A DNA stretch of 64,000 nt from a phage. The position numbers and the translations under genes are program-made. Below, in pieces: positions 24,789 to 42,025 of the stretch (positions within the stretch are counted from its first letter, which is position 1; the number at the start of each line of letters is the position of its first letter). The DNA lies in the sequence record PX880099.1; one strand, 5' to 3'. The notes beneath the pieces are model-generated. The model was not told the DNA's origin. It did not search any database and was given only the letters and a program-made list of their open reading frames with translations.

Positions 24789-24796
24789 TCAACAAA

Positions 24797-25069: not shown

Positions 25070-25078
25070 ACCATAAGC

Positions 25079-25094: not shown

Positions 25095-25123
25095 ATTAAA
25101 CGCAATAGGAAGAGGATAGACGC

Positions 25124-25545: not shown

Positions 25546-25719
25546 GATAATAAATAGGGCTTGCAATAGTCCTATTTTTTGTTATACTTATTGAACGGGC
25601 GGCACCTGGGAGCAGGTGAAGATAATCACCGGAAGATCCCGCTATATATCGATAGCTAATACCTATCAAACAACAAAACATCAAAGAGATAAACTATCAA
25701 ATCTTTACAATCCTACCTA

Positions 25720-25778
25720 TTGACACCGGATCACGCTTACATTATTATTTATCACGTAGGGCGGGAATGTTTCCCGCC
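25720..25778 (+). promoter_or_regulatory. PeSL-like cassette 22
   Basis: TTGACA-16/17-TATTAT, perfect hairpin GGCGGGAA-TGT-TTCCCGCC. Confidence 0.65.
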
Positions 25779-25796
25779 TGATTTAGGAGTCATATC

Positions 25797-26030
25797 ATGA
25801 TCGAACAAATTAAAAGCACTAAACCAAATGTTAACGGTAATGTTTCTCACTTTATCGGGGATAATGAAAGAGGTACACCGTACGCCGCCGTAACCGTTCA
25901 ACCGAACGGGGATTATTGGTTTACCGTGTACGGATCTTACTCTTTTGGACGTTCGGCACATGATAAGATCTTGCAAGTGGTTAAGCCTACTGGGAAGAAT
26001 ATCACAGCAGAAAAATTTTATAAAAAATAG
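25797..26030 (+). CDS. small early protein
   Basis: 77 aa ORF, SD AGGAG. Confidence 0.55.
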   Translation: MIEQIKSTKPNVNGNVSHFIGDNERGTPYAAVTVQPNGDYWFTVYGSYSFGRSAHDKILQVVKPTGKNITAEKFYKK

Positions 26031-27036: not shown

Positions 27037-27051
27037 TTGACAACAAAACAA

Positions 27052-27077
27052 GGGCGCACCAAGCGCCCTTTCTTTTT
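27052..27077 (+). terminator. rho-independent terminator
   Basis: GGGCGC-ACCAA-GCGCCC followed by TTTCTTTTT; closes the PeSL gene cluster. Confidence 0.65.
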
Positions 27078-27283
27078 GCCCGAACAATATTGATAGCTTT
27101 CGCCTATGAAAAACCGACACAGAACAAAACTGAATAAATCGCGGTATCGAGCTAATCAACCAGCAAACGAATAACCATACCTCCCAGGGTTACAGGCTGT
27201 TAGAGAGCCATTTAGAGCGGTTAAAATCGATCAACAACCAACAACAAACCATCAAAAACACCCTTTTACCTCCTTTCTAGTGC

Positions 27284-27302
27284 AATGATAACCATTATCA
27301 TC
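27284..27302. promoter_or_regulatory. near-consensus Fur-box-like site
   Basis: AATGATAACCATTATCATC, 15 of 16 positions match the core of GATAATGATAATCATTATC. Confidence 0.4.
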
Positions 27303-28037
27303 TACCCATGATTATCTATGCAATATAAGCGCATAATTATAATGTTGATAATAGTTCGCAACAACTAACCAACAAACAACATAAAACAATAAGCAAACTA
27401 ATCATAATCAAAGGAATAATAGCAAGATGATTGATAACGACAAACAATCAAACCATGATGAATACTAAGCAAGATAACGATAACACGACAAAACAACCAA
27501 CTAACGAACAATAACAAACGAAACCATTAAAATAATAACTATTAGCAAAATAGTGCATGAATGAAATCATTACAAAACGAATCATTCATAGAGTCATCAT
27601 TAGCACGCTATGCCGGACACATAGCGAGCTAATAATAAGCCAACTACACCCCAACAATCATAACCATCGGTGATGGTTATTTCTTGTTACTGCGTAGCTT
27701 GCAATAATTGCAAGCGTAATGACGCTTACACTTATTGCGCTGGCTTATTATTAGCATTATATGTAATTACCAAGATCATAACATTAGCGCAATAACAATA
27801 ATCATTGTGGTAATTACGTAAGGAAACAATTAGCATGGCAATAATTATGGGGGCAATGGGAGGATGATTATCATCATTCCGATACATTGCACACTATGCA
27901 CATAATAGAATAAAAAGCAATAATTTTGGGGGCGAAATGTTACCGCCACAGGCGGGAATGTTGAGCAAGTTCTCTTAAACGTAAATAAAATCAGAATAAT
28001 CTTGATTTATTTTAGTTTTTATGTTAATAAACGTTTA

Positions 28038-28056
28038 AATAATAATCATTCTCATA
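28038..28056. promoter_or_regulatory. AATGAnAAT..ATTCTCAT motif copy
   Basis: AATAATAATCATTCTCATA. Confidence 0.35.
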
Positions 28057-28215
28057 TAAATAATAGTCTGCTTGTCATGAGCGGGATTAGTTGACAATGT
28101 TCCGTCATATGATGAGGTTGCCAAGCCATTGATAAATAAGTGTTTGTGTGATTTATAATCAGGTGGCCCACCTTGTCGCTATGTTGGCATGAGCCTTGCA
28201 TAAGTCATTGAATAC

Positions 28216-28236
28216 GAATGATAATTATTCTCATTC
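28216..28236. promoter_or_regulatory. palindromic AATGAnAAT..ATTCTCAT motif copy
   Basis: GAATGA-TAATTATTC-TCATTC. Confidence 0.4.
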
Positions 28237-28576
28237 GCATGATATTTGGGAATTGTCGCTGCGTGGACCTGACGGCCCGAAAATTCGCGTTAAGCACTTC
28301 TTACGTATGCACCATGATTTTTGCCATATCATATTGATTCTATTAGATATTCTTGCCATGATTGCCATGAAACAGGGTGTCCCGAAATAATCTCTCCCCG
28401 TAGATATTTTGGGTTACTTTTTATACAAGAGTGGGGTGTCAAAAATAATCGGTATATATGGGATAATTGATAGGAATCCCCTATGATAATTCGATTGTAA
28501 TTCCCTAAGATTGATCGTATGATGTTGGTGATTAATGATTGCCATGAAAGATGGCTAACGATGAGAGGAGATTATC

Positions 28577-28951
28577 ATGCAAGAGAGTAAAAATGTTCCG
28601 TTGAGCAGTGCAACATTGCTTCGCTTCTATAAAGCATGGATTGCCAACTATCCTGCAATGAATCGCACAACGAGTGGCTTATGTGGTTGTCTGGTAGATT
28701 ATGTAGATGATTTTGTTGGTGAGACAACTAGAGAAGAAGATAGAAGATGGCGTGATCATTTGTTGGACCGTTTGAAATATGAAATGAGGAAACAATTTAC
28801 ATGTGCAGGGTTGGACTACAATCTTCCGTTCAATGCAGATTGCATGGATTACCTTTCAGAGTGTATAAACTTGGCGTGTCATACCAACACGTTACGTCTT
28901 CAATGGGTGAAAGACAGAATTGAAGATGCAAATAATGCTTGCATTGAATAA
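28577..28951 (+). CDS. paralog family A member 1
   Basis: FYKAWI...GLCGCL...NLPF...RLQWVKDRI shared with four other genes. Confidence 0.6.
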   Translation: MQESKNVPLSSATLLRFYKAWIANYPAMNRTTSGLCGCLVDYVDDFVGETTREEDRRWRDHLLDRLKYEMRKQFTCAGLDYNLPFNADCMDYLSECINLACHTNTLRLQWVKDRIEDANNACIE

Positions 28952-29000
28952 AGATGTTTGTATAATGGATGACATAACAGATAGCCAATGAGGAGATGAA

Positions 29001-29210
29001 ATGAAGAATTTGAAAACTGTCACAATGTTCTTGACTAATCCTACACGTGTGCAAGCACTGGCTAAAGCCAGCCGTGTAGCTGTAGAATTCCAAAACTTTA
29101 AGCCGTCCGTTGTGACAGGCAGTGAAACGTGTGTTATCGATTTCATTAACGAATACTTCCGAGGGAATCCGGTTGGTCGTTACTTTATTAAGGGTCTGAA
29201 GGATGCATAG
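29001..29210 (+). CDS. hypothetical protein
   Basis: 69 aa ORF, SD GAGGAG. Confidence 0.5.
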   Translation: MKNLKTVTMFLTNPTRVQALAKASRVAVEFQNFKPSVVTGSETCVIDFINEYFRGNPVGRYFIKGLKDA

Positions 29211-29211
29211 C

Positions 29212-29433
29212 ATGAAACGCATGAAAATTCGTATTGAGAATGATGGTGGTTATAAAGGACTTACCCGTGCAAAATTCCCACTTGTGTTGGAAGCTACGGT
29301 GGAATACAGTGGGCTTGCTCATGTGCGATTCTCGAAGATGATGGAAGTGCAGGAATGGTTTTGGGACGAGATAGATGCACGAGAAGGGGAAGATTATGTT
29401 TTCTTTCCTCACGAATATGAAATTGTTTATTAA
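29212..29433 (+). CDS. hypothetical protein
   Basis: ATG (MKRMKIR) after AAGGA. Confidence 0.45.
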   Translation: MKRMKIRIENDGGYKGLTRAKFPLVLEATVEYSGLAHVRFSKMMEVQEWFWDEIDAREGEDYVFFPHEYEIVY

Positions 29434-29445
29434 AGGTTGTATGCA

Positions 29446-29685
29446 ATGATCACACCACAACAAAATGAAGCAGCAATGGATCTTCTTGATAGTTTGTATT
29501 TCGATAATTGGTACTCTGAATGTGAATGGATGAATATGCAAACTCTGAAAGAGAAGACAAAAGCGTTGATTACAGTAGATCAATTTCTTGCAGAGACGGA
29601 AAGAATGAATTATGATATGGCATCTCGCGCACGACGCGTTTCCATTTTCAATAAAATGTTAGCATTATGGGGAGGTAGAAAATGA
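29446..29685 (+). CDS. hypothetical protein
   Basis: ATG (MITPQQN); track start is TTG. Confidence 0.45.
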   Translation: MITPQQNEAAMDLLDSLYFDNWYSECEWMNMQTLKEKTKALITVDQFLAETERMNYDMASRARRVSIFNKMLALWGGRK

Positions 29686-30143
29686 GACAATTCACTATAC
29701 TGGCAGCTTATGTGCAATGTGTTCACGATTATGTTAGTGCTCATACAGGTTTGCTGGAAGTTACCAGTAAAATTGAAGGTAATATGGGTACTGTCTGTGT
29801 GCAACATACTTTATCCAATGTGCCGTTTAAAGTGTTCACTGTTGTAGCTGCCGATTACAATCGTGTAGATGTGCGTTTCTTGGATCATAATTTTCGTAAC
29901 GCACTAGATAATATCGAAGATTATCTTCCCGTGAAACCTTTGTCATTTCCACCAAGTCGTGCAAATAATGTAGTGACAAATCTTAATGAAAGAAATGTGG
30001 CTATGCACAAAAAAGTCCGTCAACTGAAAATGCTGATGGAAATGCAAGAAGAGATTGAAAAAGAACTGAAAGAAGATTTTGGTATGCTTCCAAAAGACGC
30101 TTTGAAATGGTATGATGAACTAGGAGGAGAAAGTTATGAATAA
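29682..30143 (+). CDS. hypothetical protein
   Basis: 153 aa ORF, SD GGGGAGG. Confidence 0.55.
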   Translation: MRQFTILAAYVQCVHDYVSAHTGLLEVTSKIEGNMGTVCVQHTLSNVPFKVFTVVAADYNRVDVRFLDHNFRNALDNIEDYLPVKPLSFPPSRANNVVTNLNERNVAMHKKVRQLKMLMEMQEEIEKELKEDFGMLPKDALKWYDELGGESYE

Positions 30144-30330
30144 AGGAACTACTGTATATTTAGTGACTAAGAACACCCCAGGTTGGAATCAGTGCACAAC
30201 GACTCCATATAAGATTTGTGCAACACTGGAACTAGCACAACGTGCAGAAGCGGAAGTTGATGCTATGCGATACAGCTACGGGGAGATCATTCCTTTCACT
30301 CTGGAACAAGAAGGAGCACATAGTGTTTAA
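30136..30330 (+). CDS. stand-alone copy of the family-B C-terminal module
   Basis: VYLVTK...LELAQRAEAE...YGEIIPF resembles C-termini of the four family-B genes. Confidence 0.5.
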   Translation: MNKGTTVYLVTKNTPGWNQCTTTPYKICATLELAQRAEAEVDAMRYSYGEIIPFTLEQEGAHSV

Positions 30331-30778
30331 GGTAGGGTTTACTTATAAATTCAAAAGCGTTGCTGACCAAGGAGATATGGCAACACATGACAAAGCAAAT
30401 ATTGCTGTTTGCCAAGCGATTGGAAACGAAGTTTTCAAAGTTATGAATACAGATGATAAGTATGGTCATGTTCTTGAGTTTTATATCAATGGTACCCTCT
30501 ATACAGCAGGTGTTACCCCAGGGTTTAATTCGTATACTTATTTGATTGATAACGAAGAATTTAAATATTTTGAAGAAGTAAAGGAGGAAACAATGGGTAA
30601 AGCAGAACCACAATGGCATGTTGTGATCGTAGGATCAGAGTGTGTAGATGTTTGTTCTAGTTTTGAAAAAGCTTCTGAAGTCGCTACAAAAGCTAAGAAG
30701 GACTATCCGTCGAAGACGGTTGAGATTTACGCTCGTGTTGCAGTAGCAAACGCCACAATCACTATTGATAAGGAGTAA
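30323..30778 (+). CDS. paralog family B member 1 (GTG start)
   Basis: N-terminus (M)FKVGFTYKFKS after AAGGAG; conserved C-terminal VEIYARV. Confidence 0.55.
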   Translation: MFKVGFTYKFKSVADQGDMATHDKANIAVCQAIGNEVFKVMNTDDKYGHVLEFYINGTLYTAGVTPGFNSYTYLIDNEEFKYFEEVKEETMGKAEPQWHVVIVGSECVDVCSSFEKASEVATKAKKDYPSKTVEIYARVAVANATITIDKE

Positions 30779-30783
30779 AGCCA

Positions 30784-31242
30784 ATGTTCAAAGAAGGTCA
30801 TGTCTACCGTTTCCAGGATGAGGATTATATGCGACTATATTCTACCTTTGATAACAGTATTGCGGCTATCATTGGAGAGAATTTTTTCGAGGTGTTGAGC
30901 ACTGATGCAAATGGTAATATCTTGTCAATGGTTGTAATAGGTATGAGAGATGGTATTATCACTGCTGGTGATGGGGATCGTTACATAATCAATTCTGCTC
31001 ATATAGATTATTTTGTTGACGGTGGTGTTCGTGGTGGTCGTGGAAAACCCCAAGAAGAACCTGTTGATACGACAAAAGAAGAGTGGTATGTTGTAATGAC
31101 TGATGACACCTGTATTTCTGGATTTGAAAGTTATGAAGAAGCTTTGAAAGAAGCAGCAGAGCATAAAATGGCTAATCCTACAGAAGAGGTTGAAGTTTAT
31201 AAACGTCTGGTTGTTGCTACCATCGGCGTATCTTTTGTTTAA
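30784..31242 (+). CDS. paralog family B member 2
   Basis: MFKEGHVYRFQ...VEVYKRL. Confidence 0.55.
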   Translation: MFKEGHVYRFQDEDYMRLYSTFDNSIAAIIGENFFEVLSTDANGNILSMVVIGMRDGIITAGDGDRYIINSAHIDYFVDGGVRGGRGKPQEEPVDTTKEEWYVVMTDDTCISGFESYEEALKEAAEHKMANPTEEVEVYKRLVVATIGVSFV

Positions 31243-31254
31243 AAGGGGAATGTT

Positions 31255-32040
31255 ATGTTTAAAGTAGGTTTTGTTTATAATTTCAAATCGGAAGATACCA
31301 AAAAGAATTTTGGTAAAGCTAGTATTCGTAACGCTTTCTTTGTAGGTTGCATTCAAGATAGCAAGTTTAAAGTTTTAGATGTTGATTTTCTAGGTTCTGT
31401 GTCAAAGGTGAAGGTATTAGACACAAATAAGATCATCGAAGGTAGTTCTGGGCTTTTTCCTGAAGGCTATAAGCTTGTAAGTTGTATAGATTATAGTCGT
31501 TTTGAAGAACATCCTCCTGAAGATTATGAGGATTCTCCTACAGGAGGTTGTGTCTTTGTAGAAGGTGGTGTCTATAAGTTTGCAAGTGAACAAGATCGTA
31601 AGCTTTTCGCCAATTATATTGACGGCGGACAAACGACAAACAATGTAAACCGAAAAATTTCCGATCTTATTGGAGATGATCCTTTCGTGATCACAAAGAT
31701 GGTTGGACAAGATGTAACAGCAATCCGTAGGCTTGTATGTAATACAAATCATGTAGCAGGTGAAGGTTGGTTCAAAGAAGCTTGTGCACTGCTAATCAAA
31801 AGCGATAACCCTTACTTTAAAAATATTAAAAATGCTGTTGAGCCTAAACAAGAGGAACCCGCAGCGAATTTTAAACACTATGCTATTGTTAAAGGTATGA
31901 ATGTCCAACTGGTGTCACATTCTTACGAAGAGATCGCCACAGAAGCAAAAAAGATGAAGGAAGAATACCCAATTTCTACTGTTGAGATCTATGAGCGTAT
32001 TGGTGTTGTTAGTATTGAGCCTACTGCGGTAATAAAATAA
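31255..32040 (+). CDS. paralog family B member 3 (internally duplicated)
   Basis: MFKVGFVYNFKS...GGVYKFAS...VEIYERI. Confidence 0.55.
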   Translation: MFKVGFVYNFKSEDTKKNFGKASIRNAFFVGCIQDSKFKVLDVDFLGSVSKVKVLDTNKIIEGSSGLFPEGYKLVSCIDYSRFEEHPPEDYEDSPTGGCVFVEGGVYKFASEQDRKLFANYIDGGQTTNNVNRKISDLIGDDPFVITKMVGQDVTAIRRLVCNTNHVAGEGWFKEACALLIKSDNPYFKNIKNAVEPKQEEPAANFKHYAIVKGMNVQLVSHSYEEIATEAKKMKEEYPISTVEIYERIGVVSIEPTAVIK

Positions 32041-32049
32041 GGAGCTATT

Positions 32050-32487
32050 ATGTTCAAAGCTAATGCTGTTTACTGTTTCAAAAGTAAAGCTGCCTGTGAA
32101 GCTTTCTCTGTGATCTCGGATGAAAATTTCAAAATGGCAGCTTTGATTGAAGGGTCTTGTTTCCGCGTCGAAGATGTTAGTGAATCAGGGTCTGTTTGCT
32201 CATTGACTTTATTGGACAGCGGGGATATTATTGAAGCTGGACAGTATCCGTTCAGAAGTTGGGAGATATTGTTAGCTCGCGGAGAGCGTAACTTTTTTAT
32301 GTGTGTGTCTGCGGGGGAAGTTGTGAAAGAAACTAATGATGTTTCTGTTTACAATTCTGAATTTATAAGTTATAGTGAGTATCAACATCTGGAAGGCATT
32401 GTTGGTCACTTGTTATCTCTGATTGACGTTGAATGTGACCTGCCTGAATCATTGAAAGAAGAATTGAAAGCATTAGATCTGTTATAA
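32050..32487 (+). CDS. paralog family B member 4
   Basis: MFKANAVYCFKS... Confidence 0.55.
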   Translation: MFKANAVYCFKSKAACEAFSVISDENFKMAALIEGSCFRVEDVSESGSVCSLTLLDSGDIIEAGQYPFRSWEILLARGERNFFMCVSAGEVVKETNDVSVYNSEFISYSEYQHLEGIVGHLLSLIDVECDLPESLKEELKALDLL

Positions 32488-32514
32488 TGTTTCGCACAAC
32501 GAAAGGAGAATAAG

Positions 32515-32814
32515 ATGAATCTGACCGAACAGTTACGCCGTATTGCAAAAGAAACTTCCTTCAACTTCCCTGTTGAAGAAGTGATCGAGACATGTTTTGC
32601 TGAAGCACGAGCGGGAAACTTTTCAAGGAATTTCACGCCCTCTGATTTTGGTCTGGATAATTCCCCTACCCACCCAGGGGAGATCTACAATCAGGTGAAG
32701 TGGATGGATGAAGCAGTAGCAATTCTTCGTGAGCGTGGGCTTATTGTTTATAAAGAAATGGATCTGAATGGGGCATACGAGTGGATCACTATTGACTGGT
32801 CGGAGGTGAAATAA
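32515..32814 (+). CDS. hypothetical protein
   Basis: 99 aa ORF, SD AAAGGAGAA. Confidence 0.55.
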   Translation: MNLTEQLRRIAKETSFNFPVEEVIETCFAEARAGNFSRNFTPSDFGLDNSPTHPGEIYNQVKWMDEAVAILRERGLIVYKEMDLNGAYEWITIDWSEVK

Positions 32815-33023
32815 TGGTTACTATCACATTGACAGTTACACAAGAGCAAGCAGAAGAATTACGTGATGCAGTAGCATATATGGGGCGCTCTTATTATATG
32901 CCTCATAAATCACAAGATGTTTTTGCTACAGCCGTTGAGAAAGCTTTAAACAAATACCGAGAAACTCATGCCGTTCCTAAAGTATCAGTAGAAGAGTTTG
33001 GCACTTGGCACGAAGTTCACTAA
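32814..33023 (+). CDS. hypothetical protein
   Basis: 69 aa ORF, SD GGAGGTG. Confidence 0.5.
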   Translation: MVTITLTVTQEQAEELRDAVAYMGRSYYMPHKSQDVFATAVEKALNKYRETHAVPKVSVEEFGTWHEVH

Positions 33024-33033
33024 GGAGGTTTCG

Positions 33034-33267
33034 ATGAAAGGTAACAAGATGAAAGTTAATCAGGTACCGAGCGCATACACTCTGTGGCTTGCGCGAGCGT
33101 TAAACCAGACGATCAAAAATCCTAAGAAGCCAATGAAGAGTGGGAAGAAGTTTATGTCTAAGGGCAAAACAACCTTTGGCTTCACTCGTATGTCTGTTAA
33201 GATGAAAAGACTGGGGTATAAGCCAAACTACGCTCGTTACCCTTCCGAATACAACTGGTTTGATTAA
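33034..33267 (+). CDS. small basic protein
   Basis: ATG (MKGNKMKV) after AAGGAGG. Confidence 0.5.
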   Translation: MKGNKMKVNQVPSAYTLWLARALNQTIKNPKKPMKSGKKFMSKGKTTFGFTRMSVKMKRLGYKPNYARYPSEYNWFD

Positions 33268-33282
33268 AGAGGAGAACAAAAC

Positions 33283-33567
33283 ATGAAAACATCTATTCGC
33301 GTGAAACATGATCCAAACAGCAGTTACCCATACGCGTATGTTGAACGTCATGAAGGAGACTATTACACCATAAAACGTAAAGTCCCAACTGATACAGGGT
33401 TTAACTTCGATGTTATCGCACTGGATGATCAAGGTGTTGATAATCTGGTGAACGCATTACTCGCATTGAAGGAAGTACGACATGAAAATCAGACTAAAGG
33501 TAAAGTGGCTTTCGATTCTTGTGATCGTTTAGCCGAAGAGATTGCCGAATGGCGTGACACTAACTAA
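33283..33567 (+). CDS. hypothetical protein
   Basis: 94 aa ORF, SD AAGAGGAGAA. Confidence 0.55.
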   Translation: MKTSIRVKHDPNSSYPYAYVERHEGDYYTIKRKVPTDTGFNFDVIALDDQGVDNLVNALLALKEVRHENQTKGKVAFDSCDRLAEEIAEWRDTN

Positions 33568-33582
33568 AACAGGAGAAAGATT

Positions 33583-33759
33583 ATGGCTACTTTTCAACAA
33601 CTGAAAGATGTTTCACGTTTAGTAAGAAAAATCCGAGAAGCAGACGCTGCTGTGCGAAATGCACTAACGCCAGCAGAGCGTGAAGATCTTGAAGAGGAGG
33701 TGAAAACAGCCGAGAATGCTTTTGCTGCGTATCTTTCAACACTGTATACAGGAGGTTAA
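33583..33759 (+). CDS. small protein (58 aa)
   Basis: Hand-translated MATFQQLKDVSRLVRKIREAD..., SD CAGGAGAAAG. Confidence 0.45.
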   Translation: MATFQQLKDVSRLVRKIREADAAVRNALTPAEREDLEEEVKTAENAFAAYLSTLYTGG

Positions 33760-34074
33760 ATGTCAGAAGAACTTAAAGAATTTTATCAGGCATATCATAA
33801 CTGGCTATTAGCTGGTGCTCCAGATAATAATCCTTTCTGGCATGATAAAGGGTTATGTAGCTGCCTATATCTTTGGTCTGGTGGTTATGATGACCTAAAT
33901 TATGAAATGCAAATGCAATTCCGCGAAGCAGGTTTGTCTGAAGAATACCCGTTTGATGATGGGGATTGGTTTAAATATGATTTTGCACAAAGAAACGGGC
34001 TGCTACATTTGAATGCTGCTCGTATAAAATGGGTAAAAGATCATGTCACACAGGAGGATGTGCAATGCCTATAG
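33760..34074 (+). CDS. paralog family A member 2
   Basis: FYQAYHNWL...GLCSCL...EYPF...RIKWVKDHV. Confidence 0.6.
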   Translation: MSEELKEFYQAYHNWLLAGAPDNNPFWHDKGLCSCLYLWSGGYDDLNYEMQMQFREAGLSEEYPFDDGDWFKYDFAQRNGLLHLNAARIKWVKDHVTQEDVQCL

Positions 34075-34265
34075 TGTTTGTTTTCTTGGCAATTGTTATG
34101 GTGGTTCTTTTCGCTGTATGGCTTTGGGATTTTGACCCAGGAGCCGCGCAGCAAAGAGCTACAGACTTGAAAGAACAATGTATTGTGCTCAAACATGAAC
34201 GAAATGCGGAGAAATTTCTTGACCTGGAGTGTGATCGCCTTGTAAGATACAAGCAAGATAAATAA
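34065..34265 (+). CDS. small membrane protein
   Basis: MPIVFVFLAIVMVVLFAVWLW after CAGGAGG. Confidence 0.45.
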   Translation: MPIVFVFLAIVMVVLFAVWLWDFDPGAAQQRATDLKEQCIVLKHERNAEKFLDLECDRLVRYKQDK

Positions 34266-34279
34266 CCTTGAGGTGCAAA

Positions 34280-34468
34280 ATGGTAATTGAGATTAAACTT
34301 GAATATGCTGGGGCTGTTGCCTTGATCGCACAAATGCTTGGAGCAAAGATTGAAGAAGTGTATATCAACGCCTGGAGCGTAGAGATTGATGTTCCTATGG
34401 ACAACATTGCTAATCGCTTGCTGGTGGCAGAGTGTGAACGCACCAACATAATCTACAAAGGAACATAA
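34280..34468 (+). CDS. small hypothetical protein
   Basis: ATG (MVIEIKL) after GAGGTG. Confidence 0.45.
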   Translation: MVIEIKLEYAGAVALIAQMLGAKIEEVYINAWSVEIDVPMDNIANRLLVAECERTNIIYKGT

Positions 34469-34469
34469 T

Positions 34470-34691
34470 ATGAAAATTAGAGTTTGTGATGTATTGGGTT
34501 ATGTTGGTTTTGAGAATGTTCAGATTCCTTTTGTTGTTGAAGCACATCTTGTTAGTGAGGATATGACAACATTCTTTGTTACGATAGAAGAAATGTCCAA
34601 AGTTGAGGGATGGGAGTGGTTTGAAGAAGATGTTTGGGAAGGTTGTGATTACGTATTTTTCTCTGACGAAGTGAATGTTCTTGCGGAGTAG
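34470..34691 (+). CDS. hypothetical protein
   Basis: 73 aa ORF. Confidence 0.5.
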   Translation: MKIRVCDVLGYVGFENVQIPFVVEAHLVSEDMTTFFVTIEEMSKVEGWEWFEEDVWEGCDYVFFSDEVNVLAE

Positions 34692-34693
34692 GT

Positions 34694-34900
34694 ATGTCTT
34701 GTTTTACAAAAGCAGTCTCCATATGTAAGAAACAGTATGAAAGTGATTACGGAATATTTAATATTCCAGTAGATCATACAGTGTATTGTTCATGTGGTGG
34801 CAGAATGAAGAAAACAGTGATTTATGCGGATAATGGAGATGAACTTGTTCCAGTTATGGTTTGCAAAGCTTGTCATTCTGTTAAAACATTAAAAGCGTAA
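34694..34900 (+). CDS. small zinc-ribbon-like protein
   Basis: CSCGG...CKACH cysteine pairs. Confidence 0.5.
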   Translation: MSCFTKAVSICKKQYESDYGIFNIPVDHTVYCSCGGRMKKTVIYADNGDELVPVMVCKACHSVKTLKA

Positions 34901-34996
34901 GGAGTCGGGACACCCGACGATTGGAGCTAAAAATTTTGCGTACAACCCTTTCCGCCCAACAGGGGGCGCATCGGGTAAACAAAGAGGAGAGTTTAT

Positions 34997-35395
34997 ATGA
35001 AAAAGATTATCGTAGGTTTATTGTTACTCATTGCATCTCTTGGAACAGCGAATGCATCTCAAGTTTATGAGTGTGTATCAGACGTAGTTGTTAAAAATCT
35101 GAAAGGTGAAGTGATTTCTGGTCCTAAGAAAATGGCTTCTGTTGTCATTAATAAAGACAACTCCTTTATCCTTAAAAATTCGGGTGGTGCTTTGATGAGC
35201 GGTATTCTTCAAAACACAGGAGGAAAGAGTAAAGATGGAAGTTCTATGTACGGTTCACAGCAGTTTATTGGCACTACCGAAGTTGTGATGATGCGCACAG
35301 AGTATCGAGATACTTTAGCTTGGTTTGCATTTCTAAAAAATGATAAAACAATAACGAATGTTCTTACTCTAGAAGCTGATTGTACGCAACGATAA
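34997..35395 (+). CDS. secreted protein (signal peptide)
   Basis: MKKIIVGLLLLIASLGTANA. Confidence 0.55.
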   Translation: MKKIIVGLLLLIASLGTANASQVYECVSDVVVKNLKGEVISGPKKMASVVINKDNSFILKNSGGALMSGILQNTGGKSKDGSSMYGSQQFIGTTEVVMMRTEYRDTLAWFAFLKNDKTITNVLTLEADCTQR

Positions 35396-35403
35396 GGGGA
35401 TTT

Positions 35404-35850
35404 ATGACTAAAGTGAGGCATTACGCTGTAAACTGCAACGATGCTTGGCGTTTGTGTCCTGATGATCCGACAGAAGGCACATTTGTAAGATATGAGGATT
35501 ATAAAGAGTTATCGGATGCTGTGATCGCATTGTTAACTGATATCCGTTCACGTTATCCAGGACAAGATTTCACTTGCCCTCACATCAAACTTCTTGCTTG
35601 TCTGGTAGAAGGTGAGAAAGAAGTGGAAGATGGCTTCAAGCGTGTAGAGTATCAAGGTGAAACTTTAGAGGTTCCTGAATTTGTTAATTATATTGCAACA
35701 GATTCGAGTGGCGAGCGTTATGGCTACAGCCATAAGCCAGAGATTCCTGATTGGATTCCCGCTTGGAGATATTCCGTTAGGACCGGAGACTATATCTTCC
35801 TTGGTGTAGGTAGTAGTAAGGATTGGCGTTTCTCTTTGACAGAGGTTTAA
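35404..35850 (+). CDS. hypothetical protein
   Basis: ATG (MTKVRHY) after AAGGGGA. Confidence 0.5.
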   Translation: MTKVRHYAVNCNDAWRLCPDDPTEGTFVRYEDYKELSDAVIALLTDIRSRYPGQDFTCPHIKLLACLVEGEKEVEDGFKRVEYQGETLEVPEFVNYIATDSSGERYGYSHKPEIPDWIPAWRYSVRTGDYIFLGVGSSKDWRFSLTEV

Positions 35851-35854
35851 TAAT

Positions 35855-36118
35855 ATGGAAGAAACATTACCAGCAGCATATCGTTTGAATGATGAGCGTA
35901 TTTGGGAGTGGACCGACGTTTCTTGTTTTTACCCTGAAATAGTTCAGTATTGGCGAGCGAAAGGGTGTGTTGTAGTTATCAACCCTTGTGGACCAGTGGA
36001 TGAAGATTGCTTGTATCTCGATGGAAAGTGGCACAGTTATTGTCGCTGGCCTTTTGAGTGGATGTGTAAAGAAGATCTCCCAGAGGGTTGGGAGTATCCA
36101 AAAGCAAATAGGAGATAA
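35855..36118 (+). CDS. hypothetical Cys/Trp-rich protein
   Basis: 87 aa ORF. Confidence 0.5.
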   Translation: MEETLPAAYRLNDERIWEWTDVSCFYPEIVQYWRAKGCVVVINPCGPVDEDCLYLDGKWHSYCRWPFEWMCKEDLPEGWEYPKANRR

Positions 36119-36119
36119 T

Positions 36120-36482
36120 ATGTCTAAAGATTTTGTTGAAGTGTTTGTCAAAGATGAAGAAACTGGTTTAGGCACGGGTTTCATTTGTGAAGAAACTTTT
36201 AAACGTGAACAAGAAAAAGCTATCCTTATGCGAAACTATGATCATGCACTAGAACAATGGAAAAATGCAGAACAAAAATGCAAAAACCTTTATGCAGAAA
36301 ATAGAAAACTACAAGATCAAATGGAGTTGTTAGCTATCAGTTTACGATCTCTCATTTTGGCTGTAGAAGATGGTTTTAAAAATCCAGATGGTTTTCCTGT
36401 GAGCGATATTGAACATGATTTGTATCTTGCTCGTGGTGCTTACTTTTATGTTAAACAGAAGTCTGTAGAAGGAGAGAAGTGA
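36120..36482 (+). CDS. hypothetical protein, coiled-coil-like
   Basis: ATG (MSKDFVEV) after AGGAGA. Confidence 0.5.
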   Translation: MSKDFVEVFVKDEETGLGTGFICEETFKREQEKAILMRNYDHALEQWKNAEQKCKNLYAENRKLQDQMELLAISLRSLILAVEDGFKNPDGFPVSDIEHDLYLARGAYFYVKQKSVEGEK

Positions 36483-36679
36483 TGGAAGAAAAACTGGAAC
36501 GTATTATCGAGTTAGCCATGTCTATTGGCTACGACGATTGTTTTCTCCAAACTATTGGAGAAACACAGAACGATTACGACTCTTGGGTGAAAGAGTTGGA
36601 AGAACTCAAAACTTCCTTGATTGCTGACTTTGCTGAAGCAGAGGATAAAGCGGATCGTTACAACTATCTGTGTCGATAA
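36479..36679 (+). CDS. hypothetical protein
   Basis: 66 aa ORF, SD GGAGAG. Confidence 0.5.
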   Translation: MMEEKLERIIELAMSIGYDDCFLQTIGETQNDYDSWVKELEELKTSLIADFAEAEDKADRYNYLCR

Positions 36680-36683
36680 ACCT

Positions 36684-36712
36684 TGACATTTCTTTTATGT
36701 ATGGTATACATA
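36684..36712 (+). promoter_or_regulatory. sigma70-type promoter
   Basis: TTGACA with A/T-rich -10 region (TATACA/TACATA) 15-17 bp downstream. Confidence 0.4.
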
Positions 36713-36740
36713 CATTATCAACACAGATAAGGAGAGAAAA

Positions 36741-37085
36741 ATGATTAAACTCTTATGTGCAGAGTCTTCTGTCGAGTTCCTTAAAGAGGGTAAGCAGTAT
36801 CTAGCTTCCCAAGTTATAGATAATCCAGGTTTGTTTTATATTACAGACGAAGAAGGGGATACCCTGTGTATCTCTTTGATTATGGATTGTGGTCGGTTTC
36901 ATGTAATTGAGGATGACACTATTCGTCTCTTTGAGGTTTCCTACACAAAAGACAATGGTCCTGTCCGTAAATATCAAATTCCAGCAAAATCCGCCTTTAA
37001 CGCATGTGTACGATTAGGTCAAATCTACGGGGACGATAAAGATTGTCGTGAAGATGTATTTATCAACGTGATCGAGGTAAAATAA
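36741..37085 (+). CDS. hypothetical protein
   Basis: 114 aa ORF, SD AAGGAGAG. Confidence 0.55.
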   Translation: MIKLLCAESSVEFLKEGKQYLASQVIDNPGLFYITDEEGDTLCISLIMDCGRFHVIEDDTIRLFEVSYTKDNGPVRKYQIPAKSAFNACVRLGQIYGDDKDCREDVFINVIEVK

Positions 37086-37411
37086 TGAAAACAAGTAAAG
37101 ATTTGATGGAGTTTTATAAAATTTATCTAGCATGGATTGATGTTGGTGCTCCTGATGGTAAACCTTTTCGGCGGGATTGTGGTTTGTGTGCCAACTTGTT
37201 CGATTATGTGCACAGAGGTAATTACAACCCCATTATAACAACCTTGTCAGATGAAATGCACGCACAGTTTTACCATAAAGGGTTGAATCAAGGACTCCCT
37301 TTCAATGAGAACTACGATGCATATGTCTTAGAGTCAGATGCAGATGCCTGTCACCTGAACGTGGACAGAATTAATTGGGTAAGAGATCGTATTGCAGAGG
37401 AGGATGAATAA
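37085..37411 (+). CDS. paralog family A member 3
   Basis: FYKIYLAWI...GLCANL...GLPF...RINWVRDRI. Confidence 0.6.
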   Translation: MKTSKDLMEFYKIYLAWIDVGAPDGKPFRRDCGLCANLFDYVHRGNYNPIITTLSDEMHAQFYHKGLNQGLPFNENYDAYVLESDADACHLNVDRINWVRDRIAEEDE

Positions 37412-37638
37412 TGTCGGATTATAACTGGTATGAACTTGAAGCTGTTTGTCAGTTTTATGATTCAATAGTTCTACGTGATCCAATCTGTCAAGAATTGAGT
37501 CGCCGTGCAAGTGCATTGGCAATCCGTGTTAAAATAAATGGTTGGAACCCAGACTTGGAAAAAGAGTTGGAATTTCTCTTAGAAACAACACGTGTCTTCC
37601 ACAAAGTGTTCCCTGAATGGTTTGAGATGGAAGAATGA
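37411..37638 (+). CDS. hypothetical protein
   Basis: 75 aa ORF, SD GAGGAGGA. Confidence 0.5.
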   Translation: MSDYNWYELEAVCQFYDSIVLRDPICQELSRRASALAIRVKINGWNPDLEKELEFLLETTRVFHKVFPEWFEMEE

Positions 37639-37856
37639 TCATGTGGATTGTGCGTCTTAAGTATGATGGCCCTAATCCTTGGGTGAGAACAGTTTGCGGA
37701 TGTGATACTAAAGAGTCAGCAGATAAAGCTGGAAGAATGATAAGTGCCTTTTATAATAGTAAACCTCTTTGTTTAGAAATGTCTGGTGTGGTTTGTATGA
37801 GCATGTTCGAATACTACTCTTATGAGATCAAAGAACACCAAGGAGAATGGAAATAA
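37635..37856 (+). CDS. hypothetical protein
   Basis: 73 aa ORF, ATGA-coupled. Confidence 0.5.
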   Translation: MIMWIVRLKYDGPNPWVRTVCGCDTKESADKAGRMISAFYNSKPLCLEMSGVVCMSMFEYYSYEIKEHQGEWK

Positions 37857-37860
37857 ATCG

Positions 37861-37889
37861 TTGACAGAAGGATCTGTCTTTGTCATAAT
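37861..37889 (+). promoter_or_regulatory. sigma70-type promoter with GACAGA..TCTGTC palindrome
   Basis: TTGACA-17-CATAAT. Confidence 0.45.
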
Positions 37890-37918
37890 CATCTCATCGA
37901 AACAAAGAGGAGAAAATC

Positions 37919-38332
37919 ATGAAAAAGTTTATTTGCACCCGTTCCACTAACAGTGATATCCTTGTAGGTAAGGTTATCAAAGGAGAACTCTTCCATGCAA
38001 ACGGTAAGAAATATATTCTGCTGAAAGATTCTTTCAACGGGGAATATCCGCGCTGCACTTTCTTCAATTACAACACTCCGTTTGCTTTAGAAGGAGATGC
38101 TTGGGAATGGGCTGAACTCAATCCTTGTTGTGAGGAAGAAGAATCTATGTTCTTAGGTTTAAACGTTTACCGTGTAGATTACACCATGTGCGGAGCGGAA
38201 CATTCTGTTCGCGTAGAAGCCGAATCCAAACTACAAGCACCTTTCAAGGCAGGATTGACTTTGGGTCATTGTTTGGCAAACATTGAAGATGTTGTGATCC
38301 AAAGAGTTGTTTTAGAGAAAGAGGCTATTTGA
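37919..38332 (+). CDS. hypothetical protein
   Basis: 137 aa ORF, SD AGAGGAGAAAA. Confidence 0.55.
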   Translation: MKKFICTRSTNSDILVGKVIKGELFHANGKKYILLKDSFNGEYPRCTFFNYNTPFALEGDAWEWAELNPCCEEEESMFLGLNVYRVDYTMCGAEHSVRVEAESKLQAPFKAGLTLGHCLANIEDVVIQRVVLEKEAI

Positions 38333-38384
38333 GAGAAGACGGCACAATATTTAAATATAAAGATTAACCACAAAGGAGATAGAT

Positions 38385-38684
38385 ATGCAAGTTGAAGACC
38401 TGATCAAAATTTTGAATGAAGCCAAAGAGAAAGGTGCTATCAAGGACTGGAAACGTGAAACAAGTGAAGACCTATCTCACTGTTGCCGAGAATTTTACAT
38501 CGAAGGTATTGCTAACGATCATTATACTATTGAATGGTATATTAACTTAATGACTCTTAAACACGGTTCATTTGAGGTTTGGTTTGATGACATTGATGTA
38601 AATGGTTTTCATCCTGGCTATAAAATCGCTATGCAGTTATCTTATCGTAGAGAAGTTGTAGCACATTTGGGTTTACATAACTAA
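38385..38684 (+). CDS. hypothetical protein
   Basis: 99 aa ORF, SD AAAGGAGA. Confidence 0.55.
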   Translation: MQVEDLIKILNEAKEKGAIKDWKRETSEDLSHCCREFYIEGIANDHYTIEWYINLMTLKHGSFEVWFDDIDVNGFHPGYKIAMQLSYRREVVAHLGLHN

Positions 38685-38694
38685 GGAGAAAAGA

Positions 38695-39018
38695 ATGCAA
38701 GCAGTTGTTAACGAAGCTATTATGAACTTATCCTTCTTGTTAGCTGGTTTAGGAGGTGTTCTCATAGGTTTGGCTCTTATCTGGTGTATTCGTCGATTAA
38801 TCGGGTACCGACAAAAAGGTGTTTCATGTTTTGTATCTTACAATTTTACAACTGCTTACAGCAATGAGGTTGGATCTGGTAATGCTCAAGCATTTTTACC
38901 AACATATCCTCCTACGGTGGAAGATATTCGAAACTTGGAAGTAGAACTTATGGGACTAAGTGATAACTATACATCTCTCGTTATTCAAAATATTTTTCGA
39001 CTAAAACAGGAGGCGTGA
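38695..39018 (+). CDS. membrane-anchored hypothetical protein
   Basis: N-terminal hydrophobic LSFLLAGLGGVLIGLALIWCI. Confidence 0.5.
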   Translation: MQAVVNEAIMNLSFLLAGLGGVLIGLALIWCIRRLIGYRQKGVSCFVSYNFTTAYSNEVGSGNAQAFLPTYPPTVEDIRNLEVELMGLSDNYTSLVIQNIFRLKQEA

Positions 39019-39231
39019 ATGAAGGCACATTACCCTCATCCCTTTGATCCTAAAAACAAAGCCGTAATTCTTCGTCAGTGGCAACGGGTTTGTCGTACTA
39101 AATGTCCAATTAATAGCCAACACAATGTGGACAAGGACTATCTTGGGACATTTGTTGAATACACTTACATAGACAAAAACAAGCGTAAACAACATGTCGA
39201 GGAATACTGTTTAAGAGTAGAATGGCTGTAA
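39019..39231 (+). CDS. hypothetical protein
   Basis: 70 aa ORF, SD CAGGAGG. Confidence 0.5.
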   Translation: MKAHYPHPFDPKNKAVILRQWQRVCRTKCPINSQHNVDKDYLGTFVEYTYIDKNKRKQHVEEYCLRVEWL

Positions 39232-39243
39232 ATAATAAATACC

Positions 39244-39272
39244 TTGACAAGTGTTTATTCGTTTTGTAAAGT
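39244..39272 (+). promoter_or_regulatory. sigma70-type promoter upstream of the recombinase gene
   Basis: TTGACA-17-TAAAGT. Confidence 0.45.
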
Positions 39273-39301
39273 GAGAATACAGCAATGGTTTAGGAGTGGT
39301 T

Positions 39302-39973
39302 ATGAAAAAGTTTGTTGTTTACAGTCGTCTTTCTAAACAGAAAAAAGGTGAGGCACAATATGGTATGGAGAGCCAAGAGAATGATATCCGTTACTTCTTA
39401 GACTCTGTGCCTGATGCGGAAGTTATTGGTCAATTTTCTGAATACTATTCTGGTAAGGGCGATTGGAAGCAACGTAAGGAACTGGTTAAAGCGGTTGAAA
39501 TGTGTAAAGCTACCGGAGCAACTTTATTGGTAGCTAAAGTTGACCGCTTGGGTCGTAACAACGCCTCCGTAGCAACTCTTCTGGAGATGATCGATGTTAA
39601 GATAGCCATCATGCCAGACGCAGATAAAATGGTTATACAGCTTCTATCTGTTCTGGCTGAACAAGAAGTTAGAGGTATTGCTGATCGTATTAAAAAGGGT
39701 CTTGCTGTAGCAAAAAGTAAAGGTGTTTTATTAGGTAGTGCTAATCCTAAAACTGCCGCTGCACGTAGAAAAGGAAAAATGGAATACAACTCTGTTAAAG
39801 CAGACGCTTTTGCAGAGACATTCCGTGAACGCTTGGAGATCCTTAGAGATTTAAATACACCTTACAAAACTATTGCTGAAAAATTCAATAGTAAGAAAAT
39901 AGCAACAGCACGTGGTGGTAAATGGGATGCTAAAACTGTTTCTCGTTTGTGTGCCAGACTTAACATTAAATAG
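39302..39973 (+). CDS. serine recombinase (resolvase/invertase family)
   Basis: 223 aa; VVYSRLSKQ catalytic-serine region, LLVAKVDRLGRN, C-terminal HTH-like segment; ATG after AGGAG. Confidence 0.6.
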   Translation: MKKFVVYSRLSKQKKGEAQYGMESQENDIRYFLDSVPDAEVIGQFSEYYSGKGDWKQRKELVKAVEMCKATGATLLVAKVDRLGRNNASVATLLEMIDVKIAIMPDADKMVIQLLSVLAEQEVRGIADRIKKGLAVAKSKGVLLGSANPKTAAARRKGKMEYNSVKADAFAETFRERLEILRDLNTPYKTIAEKFNSKKIATARGGKWDAKTVSRLCARLNIK

Positions 39974-39981
39974 GAGAGGAT

Positions 39982-40392
39982 ATGAAACAAGAAAATGAAT
40001 CTGTAGATCACTTAATCATGCTGTCAACCCTTTTTGCCGGATGGGACGTATTTTTTGAAAATTTGTTCAATTCTGCTACAGATGGTTCCGATTTTATGCG
40101 GCAGTTTAAACGACGAACTGTTGAGGACTATGCTTTCTATTCAGGTCGGATTGAAAAAGGTTACGAAGATACAAATACAACACTCACCATTAAAGTTTTA
40201 GATGTGATGTTTAGTGTTATAGATGCTATCGACGAAAGTCTTCCGATCCTGGACAATTGTAATACGAAAGCCTATGTTTACAAAATAGCCCGTGCTTATG
40301 TGTCTGCAAACAGTTGTCTTCTTTCCACGCAGATTGCCGTGAACAATCTTGCCAACTTGTTCGACGAAGGAGAAACTTTTTATGACAATTGA
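39982..40392 (+). CDS. hypothetical protein
   Basis: 136 aa ORF, SD AGGAGAGGA. Confidence 0.55.
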   Translation: MKQENESVDHLIMLSTLFAGWDVFFENLFNSATDGSDFMRQFKRRTVEDYAFYSGRIEKGYEDTNTTLTIKVLDVMFSVIDAIDESLPILDNCNTKAYVYKIARAYVSANSCLLSTQIAVNNLANLFDEGETFYDN

Positions 40393-40747
40393 TTTGAAGT
40401 GTAAAAGGATTCTTTTAGATTTCTATAATAATTGGTTAGAACACCTCCGTCTCTTTCCAAGAGAAAGTGGTTACGCTGATGTTGGCTTATGCCGAGGTCT
40501 ACGTATGTATATAAGTGATGAATTTCGGGCCGAGCATTCTTTAGCATATTCTGTTTATGGTATGCAATTAGCCAGTTTTGAAAACGCTGGCTTAGATACA
40601 ACTTTCCCATTTAACACAGCAAAATCTTTTGAGCAAGAGTGTAAGGAAAAACGTTGCATGTTTAATGAAAAACGTGTACAGTGGGTTAAGGATCGAGTTA
40701 AACAACTGGAACAAGAGTTGGATTTCTTCTATGATGAGGCAGAATAA
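40382..40747 (+). CDS. paralog family A member 4
   Basis: ATG (MTIDLKC) after GAAGGAGAA; FYNNWL...GLCRGL...TFPF...RVQWVKDRV. Confidence 0.55.
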   Translation: MTIDLKCKRILLDFYNNWLEHLRLFPRESGYADVGLCRGLRMYISDEFRAEHSLAYSVYGMQLASFENAGLDTTFPFNTAKSFEQECKEKRCMFNEKRVQWVKDRVKQLEQELDFFYDEAE

Positions 40748-41019
40748 TGGATAGACAAACCTTAAAAACAATGGCAGATGCCACTAATTCCCCGTACTTT
40801 GAAAAAGTAAGTAAATTGGTAGCTCAAGCCGCAGAGGAAGGATATTATAACATAAACATCCACAACCCAAGTCTTATACTAGAAATGCCAAGTGATAAGA
40901 AGATACAAGAAAGTATCTGTGAAGGTATTGTTAGTTACTGGCGCGAGCGTGGGTGTGGTGCAAACATGGCTTTAGACAGTGCAAACATTGTAAGATATAT
41001 AAATATTTCTTGGGGGTGA
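40747..41019 (+). CDS. hypothetical protein
   Basis: 90 aa ORF. Confidence 0.5.
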   Translation: MDRQTLKTMADATNSPYFEKVSKLVAQAAEEGYYNINIHNPSLILEMPSDKKIQESICEGIVSYWRERGCGANMALDSANIVRYINISWG

Positions 41020-41023
41020 TTTT

Positions 41024-41635
41024 ATGATTCAATGCACTCATATCCAAATTACTTGGAGAGATGAACTTTACCATTTGGGACAATTTACTGTAGGGGAAAC
41101 ATACCCTATCATTAAACATAATCCTAACATCGCAAACTTTGACAGGATGGTTCTTGTTGAGGACGATCTAGGTCAAACTTATTCTTTAGATCTAAAATAT
41201 CCGTTTTCTTACGGCTACGATTGGATCGTTACTTTTGAAGACGTGGAGGAAAATAAAACAATGAACGAAAAAAATTCTTGGTATTATCGTTGTGAACTGC
41301 CGCCAGTAGGTGAAAAGGTTATCTTTGTTCCTGATTTGGAAAGATATTCTTGGGACAGTTCTTATTCTGTTCCTAAAGAAGGCACCGAAGTTGAAGTTAT
41401 TGCACATCGCACAACTTCGCATGGTAACGATGTAGCAGTTGTTTTCTGGGATGATGAAGGCGCTGCTTGTGCAGGTGGCTTTGTTGCAGGTAATTTTGAA
41501 CCCCTGCCAGATCCTTTGAAGGAGGCAATTTTAGGCGTAGCTTCTTTTGGACTCTCTTACACATCTGCACAGGAGATCGTAGAAGGTATTTTAAACGGTA
41601 CCGTTCCAAACGAAATTTTCAAACAGATTAAATAA
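41024..41635 (+). CDS. hypothetical protein
   Basis: 203 aa ORF. Confidence 0.55.
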   Translation: MIQCTHIQITWRDELYHLGQFTVGETYPIIKHNPNIANFDRMVLVEDDLGQTYSLDLKYPFSYGYDWIVTFEDVEENKTMNEKNSWYYRCELPPVGEKVIFVPDLERYSWDSSYSVPKEGTEVEVIAHRTTSHGNDVAVVFWDDEGAACAGGFVAGNFEPLPDPLKEAILGVASFGLSYTSAQEIVEGILNGTVPNEIFKQIK

Positions 41636-41640
41636 CAGTT

Positions 41641-41668
41641 GCACCCCGTTCTTCGGGGTGTTATTGTA
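41641..41668 (+). terminator. terminator-like hairpin
   Basis: GCACCCCG-TTCTT-CGGGGTG followed by TTATTGTAT. Confidence 0.5.
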
Positions 41669-41686
41669 TACGTAAAGGAGGAGATA

Positions 41687-42025
41687 ATGTATTACACTGA
41701 AGACTACATACTGTATAACTTTTTTAAAGGCTGGTTGAAATGGGCTGAACAAGCTCCTGTCGGAGATTGTGTTTTTCCTTGGGATTCTCGTCAAGGTTTG
41801 TGTCGTTGTTTGGAAGATTGGCTTATAACCACAAACTACAACTCAGAAACTAAGAAATCTACATCACAGAGACTAAAAATGTTATTTGAAGAAGATGGTT
41901 TAGATCCGATTTATCCTTTCGGTGAGGAAAGTTTCCACAATGGTCTTTTCCTTGGCACTCAACATTATGATAAAGATCGTGTAGATTGGGTAAAAGAAAA
42001 GGTAGCACAGTATGAATGGGGTTAA
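41687..42025 (+). CDS. paralog family A member 5
   Basis: ATG (MYYTEDY) after AAGGAGGAG; FFKGWL...GLCRCL...IYPF...RVDWVKEKV. Confidence 0.55.
   Translation: MYYTEDYILYNFFKGWLKWAEQAPVGDCVFPWDSRQGLCRCLEDWLITTNYNSETKKSTSQRLKMLFEEDGLDPIYPFGEESFHNGLFLGTQHYDKDRVDWVKEKVAQYEWG

Follow-up and report, generated by a model that had tools for sequence, protein, structure and literature searches.

What do five small, diverged copies of one gene, scattered amongst largely unrelated neighbours, do for the phage that keeps them? The question is raised by a stretch of 64,000 nucleotides from sequence record PX880099.1 (hereafter the window), which belongs to Phapecoctavirus, the phAPEC8-like Escherichia coli myoviruses (subfamily Stephanstirmvirinae, genomes of ~150 kb); many such genomes are 96–98% identical to it over the 15 kb that surround the genes. 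A preliminary description, drawn from the sequence alone, had grouped the five genes as a dispersed paralog family (family A; the copies are called A1–A5 here) and suggested that such a family might target a variable host factor or form an anti-defence arsenal. All five lie inside an array of roughly 18 kb on one strand (28.5–46.4 kb), which comprises about 60 small genes, nearly all of them annotated as hypothetical in GenBank. We find that A1–A5 are old paralogs within a large family of phage proteins, PHROG 2510, for which a five-helix domain is predicted. We tentatively favour the idea that a conserved scaffold carries a variable helical hairpin that would bind, early in infection, different proteins of the host or of its defences.

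The five open reading frames (ORFs) were all recovered (Table 1), each on the + strand with an ATG start and a Shine–Dalgarno-like sequence upstream. BLASTP found significant similarity in ten of ten pairs (23–39% identity; expectation value E from 4.6e-5 to 2.8e-22), and a profile made from any four copies recovered the fifth with E between 3e-14 and 5e-24, the next ORF of the window giving E > 0.1. A family-wide hidden Markov model (HMM) scanned over the 64 kb gave exactly five matches (E 5e-22 to 5e-34) and no sixth copy. A search for repeats between the copies at the DNA level found none; the duplications are therefore old. A1–A5 are confirmed as true paralogs, old and diverged. The preliminary description had allowed that the shared residues might be chance, and one could add that the ORFs might not be real genes. 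The low pairwise identity is compatible with such a view, which can be practically dismissed: the alignment and the pairwise and leave-one-out E values speak against it, as do a family of at least 1,651 clusters, a ratio of nonsynonymous to synonymous substitution (dN/dS) far under 1 at synonymous divergence (dS) of up to 0.48, predicted models with local confidence scores (pLDDT) of 92–94 and a ribosome-binding site at each of the five genes.

The MAFFT alignment of the five copies has 16 invariant columns, amongst them (in A3 numbering, as for all single residues named below) Phe10, Gly33-Leu34-Cys35, Leu38, Phe62, Leu67, Pro72-Phe73, Arg95 and Trp98-Val99. Trp17 is common to all copies but lies beside an indel, and MAFFT gives it no single invariant column. 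The motifs of the preliminary description were right in substance and need correction in detail. The spacing of FY..W is not fixed, since three residues are inserted in A2 and A3 (FY..Y..W), and A5 has FF..W in its place; PF, said to follow Tyr or Leu, is preceded by Leu, Tyr or Phe; and the motif near the C-terminus should read R..WV(K/R)(D/E).(V/I), in which a single residue, where two had been given, separates the acidic position from the last. The exceptions to the signature, Tyr11 to Phe and Asn92 to Asp, are both in A5, the most divergent copy (FF..W, WVKEK; leave-one-out E 3.3e-14). Of the five, A3 is nearest to the family consensus.

Dispersal amongst unrelated genes holds too, save for a second family of two members at 29203–29433 and 34470–34691 (+ strand, 76 and 73 amino acids, BLASTP E 1e-11), which follow A1 and A2, respectively, at a distance of a few hundred bases. 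This pair may be what is left of an old segmental duplication. That a cassette of several genes was duplicated was considered and rejected: this one extra pair is all that the regions downstream of A1 and A2 have in common, the intervening genes are unrelated and DNA repeats are absent. On its structural side, the earlier interpretation of a multi-copy and strongly diverged family dispersed amongst small genes stands.

All five proteins are members of PHROG 2510 (E 2.3e-25 to 3.4e-32), annotated 'unknown function', and match PHROGs 6418, 27059 and 2176 more weakly; these carry the same label. They align to the first ~110 positions of the phrog_2510 profile, the length of which, 219, reflects the inclusion of two-domain members. 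The entry holds no function, structure or description, and the multi-copy expansion in Stephanstirmvirinae is unrecorded there. Amongst 1.84 billion representative proteins, a profile detected no fewer than 1,651 clusters (50% identity) with E <= 1e-3 and 684 with E <= 1e-10; a second search, of a 5.8-billion-protein set, added little. By tblastn, members occur in 262 phage records, covering Stephanstirmvirinae, N4-like phages of Klebsiella, Achromobacter, Erwinia and E. coli, T7-like phages of Rhizobium and Ralstonia, Delftia phage PhiW-14 and Pseudomonas phage phiPMW. A fold search of BFVD adds proteins of Burkholderia, Pectobacterium and Pseudomonas Pakpunavirus phages, all uncharacterized. 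All the member contexts that were examined belong to phages, phage-like contigs or phage-plasmids, and of 72,556 plasmids the only one with a match was a phage-plasmid. In metagenomic contigs the members sit in arrays of small unannotated genes or as a small insertion within a tail module. No publication ascribing a function to a member emerged from the literature on the PHROG, its accessions, N4 gp3 or Stephanstirmvirinae.

A classical model phage with a member is coliphage N4, in which gp3 (YP_950481; NC_008720 1214–1528) matches the family HMM with E 7.6e-23 and has the motifs GLC, LPFN and CHLN..R..W. It is a small gene of the left-end region transcribed by the virion RNA polymerase and has gp2 and gp15 on either side, both of which are early genes (PMC4496689). 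N4, a podovirus, has RNA polymerases of its own and one copy of the gene, whereas the phage of the window is a 150 kb myovirus with five. In Klebsiella phage KP8 the member gp007 is flanked by annotated early promoters, and in Rhizobium phage Palo a member lies in the left-end region, before the primase. The early region of the Pseudomonas N4-like phage LUZ7 contains no family member.

Some records of related phages call for comment. In Escherichia phage Bas79 (PQ850629) an unannotated ORF at 3893–4294 on the + strand is a member (HMM E 1.4e-27), and Bas79_0090, the annotated ORF overlapping it on the − strand, is probably a mis-call. Records MG065650 and MG065639 ('Campylobacter phage' B15 and A150) and OP562383 ('Acinetobacter phage vB_AbaM_ABPW7') match the family A region of this group of E. 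coli phages; over the 15 kb, B15 and ABPW7 are 96–97% identical, and A150 is a Justusliebigvirus with family members. The host labels of these three records look doubtful.

Copy number was compared by HMM scans of related genomes. Five copies are found in the window and in vB_Ec-G1, six in ZCKP1, seven in phAPEC8 (gp245, gp244, gp233, gp222, gp219, gp214 and gp211) and nine in phiWec188; Citrobacter phage Tr1 has nine domains in eight genes and Justusliebigvirus genomes have two to four copies, so that the range within Stephanstirmvirinae is 2–9. The extra members of phAPEC8, gp245 (7022–7366) and gp219 (14770–15090), are absent from the window. The position of gp219 is a local gene-replacement hotspot; in the window (37856–38332) it is taken by a promoter-like site (37861–37889, 11/12 match) and a different gene of 137 amino acids.

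In a neighbour-joining tree each copy of the window stands beside near-identical phAPEC8 orthologs at the end of a long branch, and A2, A4 and A5 also stand with ZCKP1. Orthologs of A1 with at least 80% amino-acid identity occur in 77 phage records (dN/dS 0.12–0.45), and those of A3, at 80–100%, in 63 (dN/dS 0.13–0.28). The other three are held more tightly: A2 in 62 records, all with at least 95% identity (dN/dS 0.009–0.023 at dS 0.34–0.44), A4 in 65 at 95% or more (dN/dS 0–0.06) and A5 in 65 at 80% or more (dN/dS 0.05–0.09). The dN/dS calculation that the preliminary description had recommended thus shows purifying selection on each copy, with values of 0–0.45. Near-identical orthologs on long branches, together with low dN/dS, indicate that the copies are not redundant. 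The 62–77 records per copy are roughly as many as the genus sample holds. The five have thus been kept for long as non-redundant, near-core genes, while extra copies come and go.

These data bear on the idea that the proteins are adaptors or cofactors of the phage's own transcription, replication or nucleotide metabolism, each paralog having a different phage partner. The near-core status of each copy (62–77 records) suits it, as does the near-invariance of three of them, which is what would be expected of co-adapted internal partners, and N4 gp3 lies amongst the N4 middle-transcription machinery genes gp1, gp2, gp15 and gp16. The family nevertheless spans phages that replicate and transcribe their genomes in unrelated ways (N4-like, T7-like, rV5-related and Pakpunavirus), and in the contexts examined it has no conserved neighbour and no fusion partner other than itself and DUF551. 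Nor is it a general requirement, since copy number varies from 1 to 9 and there is none in the LUZ7 early region or in the 50 kb scanned of phage Bas54. We regard a role within the phage's own machinery as decidedly unlikely.

Within the A1 subfamily the sequences are mosaic, with modules shuffled by recombination. The termini are near-invariant, and residues 41–64 and 86–104 (A1 numbering) are hypervariable with indels. One member, P0016, is a chimera that equals P0028 over residues 1–85 (72/73) and A1 over residues 86–124 (39/39); P0023 and P0036 are chimeras of a similar type. Two further variants, P0013 (from phage BI-EHEC) and P0038, are apparently frameshifted orthologs of A4 and A1, with C-termini that diverge after PFN; they could be sequencing errors or decaying copies. 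In other phage lineages members occur as adjacent pairs, and two- or three-domain fusions account for 21 of the best 150 representatives. The fusion partners, which are only the domain itself, DUF551 and PHROGs 2381, 8364, 924 and 7704, gave no clue to function, as none has a known one.

Structure prediction, another of the checks proposed earlier, gave confident models for the two copies modelled. AlphaFold2 (AF2) places helices at residues 5–19, 34–43, 50–64, 77–85 and 93–107 of A3 (pLDDT 93.9, predicted template-modelling score 0.86) and at residues 12–22, 35–47, 53–76, 89–97 and 105–123 of A1 (pLDDT 92.1, predicted template-modelling score 0.85). The order of the five helices (H1–H5) is identical and both models are all-alpha; BFVD models of family members match at template-modelling scores of 0.7–0.85. 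The segment that varies in length is the H2–H3 hairpin, of 10+15 residues in A3 and 13+24 in A1; amongst the five copies it is longest in A1, which represents the most variable subfamily, and shortest in the very strongly conserved A2. Neither PDB sequences nor PDB folds gave a match. At curated thresholds A1–A5 have no match in Pfam, NCBIfam or PADLOC (best 16 bits against a cut-off of 27), and no weak Pfam match (E <= 1) recurred amongst 112 diverse members.

Conservation was computed over 211 domains of the family. Cys35 (206/208), Pro72, Phe73 and Arg95 (209/210) are essentially invariant, and Leu7, Phe10, Tyr11, Gly33, Leu34, Gln61, Phe62, Leu67, Asn92, Trp98 and Val99 are conserved in more than 90%. 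Glu57, Asn74, Tyr80 and Glu83 are kept in about three quarters or more, and His90 in 71%. Most of these residues fall in one stripe per helix, with the helix caps (Ser4, Gly33 and Asn92-Pro93) and the PF turn in addition. Such striping would be the pattern of a buried core, with the remaining surface presumably free to vary.

The same residues could be taken to form a common pocket of Cys35, Arg95, Asn92, Gln61, Glu57, Glu83 and, usually, His90, in which case the protein would be a small enzyme or a binder of a small molecule or metal, for example a signal 'sponge', and ligand specificity would vary amongst the paralogs and tandem fusions, or these would form oligomers. The retention of Cys35 and Arg95, and of Asn92, Gln61, Glu57, Glu83 and Tyr80, each kept in about 80–94% of the 211 domains, in phages of alpha-, beta- and gammaproteobacteria is in keeping with this, as is the placement of Cys35 in the first turn of helix 2 after an invariant glycine; two- and three-domain fusions and tandem genes are frequent, as expected of proteins that act as oligomers. 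Against it, His90 is kept in just 71% of the domains and is methionine in the strongly conserved A4, the conserved residues have the periodicity of a core stripe, and Asn92-Pro93, Ser4 and Gly33 resemble helix caps. The zinc-site version failed. A site made of Cys35, Cys37, Cys89 and His90 was rejected, as Cys37 and Cys89 show no compensatory pattern (Fisher p = 0.87), 32 of the 211 domains have a single Cys/His candidate and the only invariant candidate ligand is Cys35. A pocket shared by the family is a lesser possibility, which we consider rather doubtful.

No sequence or fold match was found between the family and known anti-defence, defence or host-takeover proteins. The sole functional label on record is that of CAM6581850.1, a protein in the 90%-identity cluster of A1, which is named 'Anti-restriction nuclease'. 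This is the name of T4 Arn, an inhibitor of McrBC, which is like family A in being a small, acidic, early phage protein. The label is unsupported, as the family shows no homology to Arn (hhalign probability 0.06%, E 0.76; BLASTP E 9.1). Ocr, AsiA, Gam/gp5.9, Acb2 and Tad1/Tad2 are small anti-defence or host-takeover proteins of phages with solved structures, and family A is of the same general type, early phage-specific proteins of ~100 residues; some of those known proteins are helical and act as oligomers. The resemblance does not extend to DNA mimics of the Ocr or ArdA type: A1–A5 are mildly acidic (isoelectric point 4.5–5.3) in a family with a median of 5.4 and a range reaching 10.4, and no PDB fold matches. 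Nor did a comparison with the solved sponges Acb2, Tad1 and Tad2 reveal a likeness.

The transposon screen HIDEN-SEQ of Bas54, a related Vequintavirus, identified a 99-residue anti-defence gene, bas54_0140 (bioRxiv 10.1101/2025.11.20.689424). A link to family A by its similar size, its place near a long intergenic region and the related subfamily was considered and rejected (family match E 3.1). No family member was found in the 50 kb of Bas54 that were scanned (86.4–136.3 kb; the other 86 kb lay outside the scan).

Our tentative model is as follows. The five genes encode diverged copies of a phage-specific five-helix domain of ~100 residues, that of PHROG 2510 and N4 gp3, and would be expressed from an early or delayed-early block of small genes of the phAPEC8-like phage. 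Each copy might be a stoichiometric binder of host proteins, whose conserved helical core displays the length-variable H2–H3 hairpin and a variable H4 region as the probable binding surface. The variable parts would recognize different host proteins, possibly defence proteins, and block or redirect them early, so that several copies would cover several targets. A role directed at the host, or in an arms race with it, fits the restriction of the family to phage contexts and its presence in early-type regions of unrelated phage groups; it also fits the copy number of 2–9 amongst close relatives and the shuffled modules of A1. As an extrapolation from such sequence features, the 'anti-defence arsenal' of the preliminary description is plausible.

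Several points weigh against this model of a scaffold with variable binding parts. A2, A4 and A5 are nearly invariant over about 62–65 phage records (dN/dS 0–0.09), unlike typical arms-race proteins. About ten polar residues are conserved family-wide, amongst them Cys35, Arg95, Asn92, Gln61, Glu57, Glu83 and His90, which exceeds the usual need of a pure scaffold and speaks for a pocket or active site common to the family; a single invariant cysteine where a helix begins, together with an invariant arginine, likewise suggests a shared chemical or ligand-binding role. The placing of the conserved polar residues and the variable modules at the surface or in the interior was deduced from helical periodicity. 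Lastly, the promoter–hairpin cassettes of the 16–26 kb region, described below, are absent from the family A block, and the timing of the family in this phage is thus uncertain.

A bolder proposal, which we regard as unlikely, goes further. The PHROG 2510 domain would be a previously unrecognized fold serving virulent proteobacterial phages as a modular platform for counter-defence or host capture: the conserved Cys–Arg face would perform one common act, either catalysis or the binding of a ligand or a conserved host machine, the shuffled H2–H3 and H4 modules would choose the target, and five to nine specialized copies would make up the arsenal of phAPEC8-like phages. What weight is left beyond the binder, the pocket and the phage's own machinery falls to something else.

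Table 1. Family A genes and the hairpins that bound their block (positions in the window).
Feature	Position	Strand	Protein length (amino acids)	Ribosome-binding site	E against phrog_2510	Remarks
Hairpin	27050–27070					Strong GC hairpin with T runs on both strands (bidirectional terminator) bounding the block
Paralog A1	28577–28951	+	124	GAGAGGAG	2.3e-25	
Paralog A2	33760–34074	+	104		4e-29	
Paralog A3	37085–37411	+	108		3.4e-32	
Paralog A4	40382–40747	+	121		2.2e-26	
Paralog A5	41687–42025	+	112	AAGGAGGAG	4.1e-27	
Hairpin	46448–46471					Strong GC hairpin with T runs on both strands (bidirectional terminator) bounding the block

Some details of the genes and their surroundings remain to be described. 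The nearly invariant A4 has an acidic C-terminal tail, and its ATG overlaps the 3' end of the gene before it. For A5 the start was placed at the ATG given in Table 1 and not at an upstream TTG (ORF from 41639), because a terminator-like hairpin (41641–41661) and then the ribosome-binding site precede that ATG. Further strong hairpins of the bidirectional-terminator kind occur at 21413 and 26486, and the sequence AAGGGCGCA.CAAGCGCCCTT recurs three times.

A1 is the first gene after an ORF-poor stretch of ~1.5 kb (27070–28570) that is rich in A and C, with runs of AACAA. The same gap is found in phAPEC8 (5512–7022), phiWec188 and ZCKP1, several GenBank records begin their numbering there, and a search of the stretch for Rfam families and tRNAs gave no match. 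Bas54 has an intergenic region of ~2 kb (about 2.5 kb by coordinates) that is free of transposon insertions (bioRxiv 10.1101/2025.11.20.689424). The stretch in the window may serve as an origin or terminus, or act in cis in some other way.

Two other elements lie within the block. Four tandem 'GoF-like' paralogs (30242–32487, + strand; 178, 152, 261 and 145 amino acids) form another multi-copy family in the same gene block; they differ from family A in being unrelated in sequence, tandem rather than dispersed, and larger (145–261 residues). The last three begin MFK.G/N.VY.F. Some records label these paralogs 'goF mRNA metabolism modulator'. Between A3 and A4 there is a gene resembling a serine recombinase or DNA invertase (39296–39973, + strand, 225 amino acids), labelled 'DNA invertase' or 'resolvase' in relatives.

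Ahead of the block, the + strand of 16100–25800 carries at least 15 copies of a repeated cassette at spacings of 300–1600 nucleotides. Each comprises a sigma-70-like promoter (TTGACA, a 17-nucleotide spacer, TAnAAT), a conserved 'TATCACGTAGGGCGGCAATGGTGCCGC' GC hairpin directly after it, a ribosome-binding site and a small gene. This looks like an immediate-early region with a common 5'-leader structure.

Expanded families of small early genes are common in large virulent phages, so the finding is unsurprising in kind, and membership in PHROG 2510 was already catalogued, though the family is functionally blank. Its interest lies in a large, confidently folded family, found in phage contexts only and without a Pfam entry or structural relative, that has members in the model phage N4 and in therapy-relevant phages of E. 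coli and Klebsiella. Should the genes prove to be ordinary dispensable accessories, an annotation will still have been gained for five genes in each of about 65–77 related phage records. With N4 as a single-copy system and the phAPEC8-like phages as a multi-copy one, the question is directly testable. Repeated amplification, whether dispersed, tandem or fused, together with the module shuffling of A1, makes this a promising candidate for a new type of early host-interaction protein.

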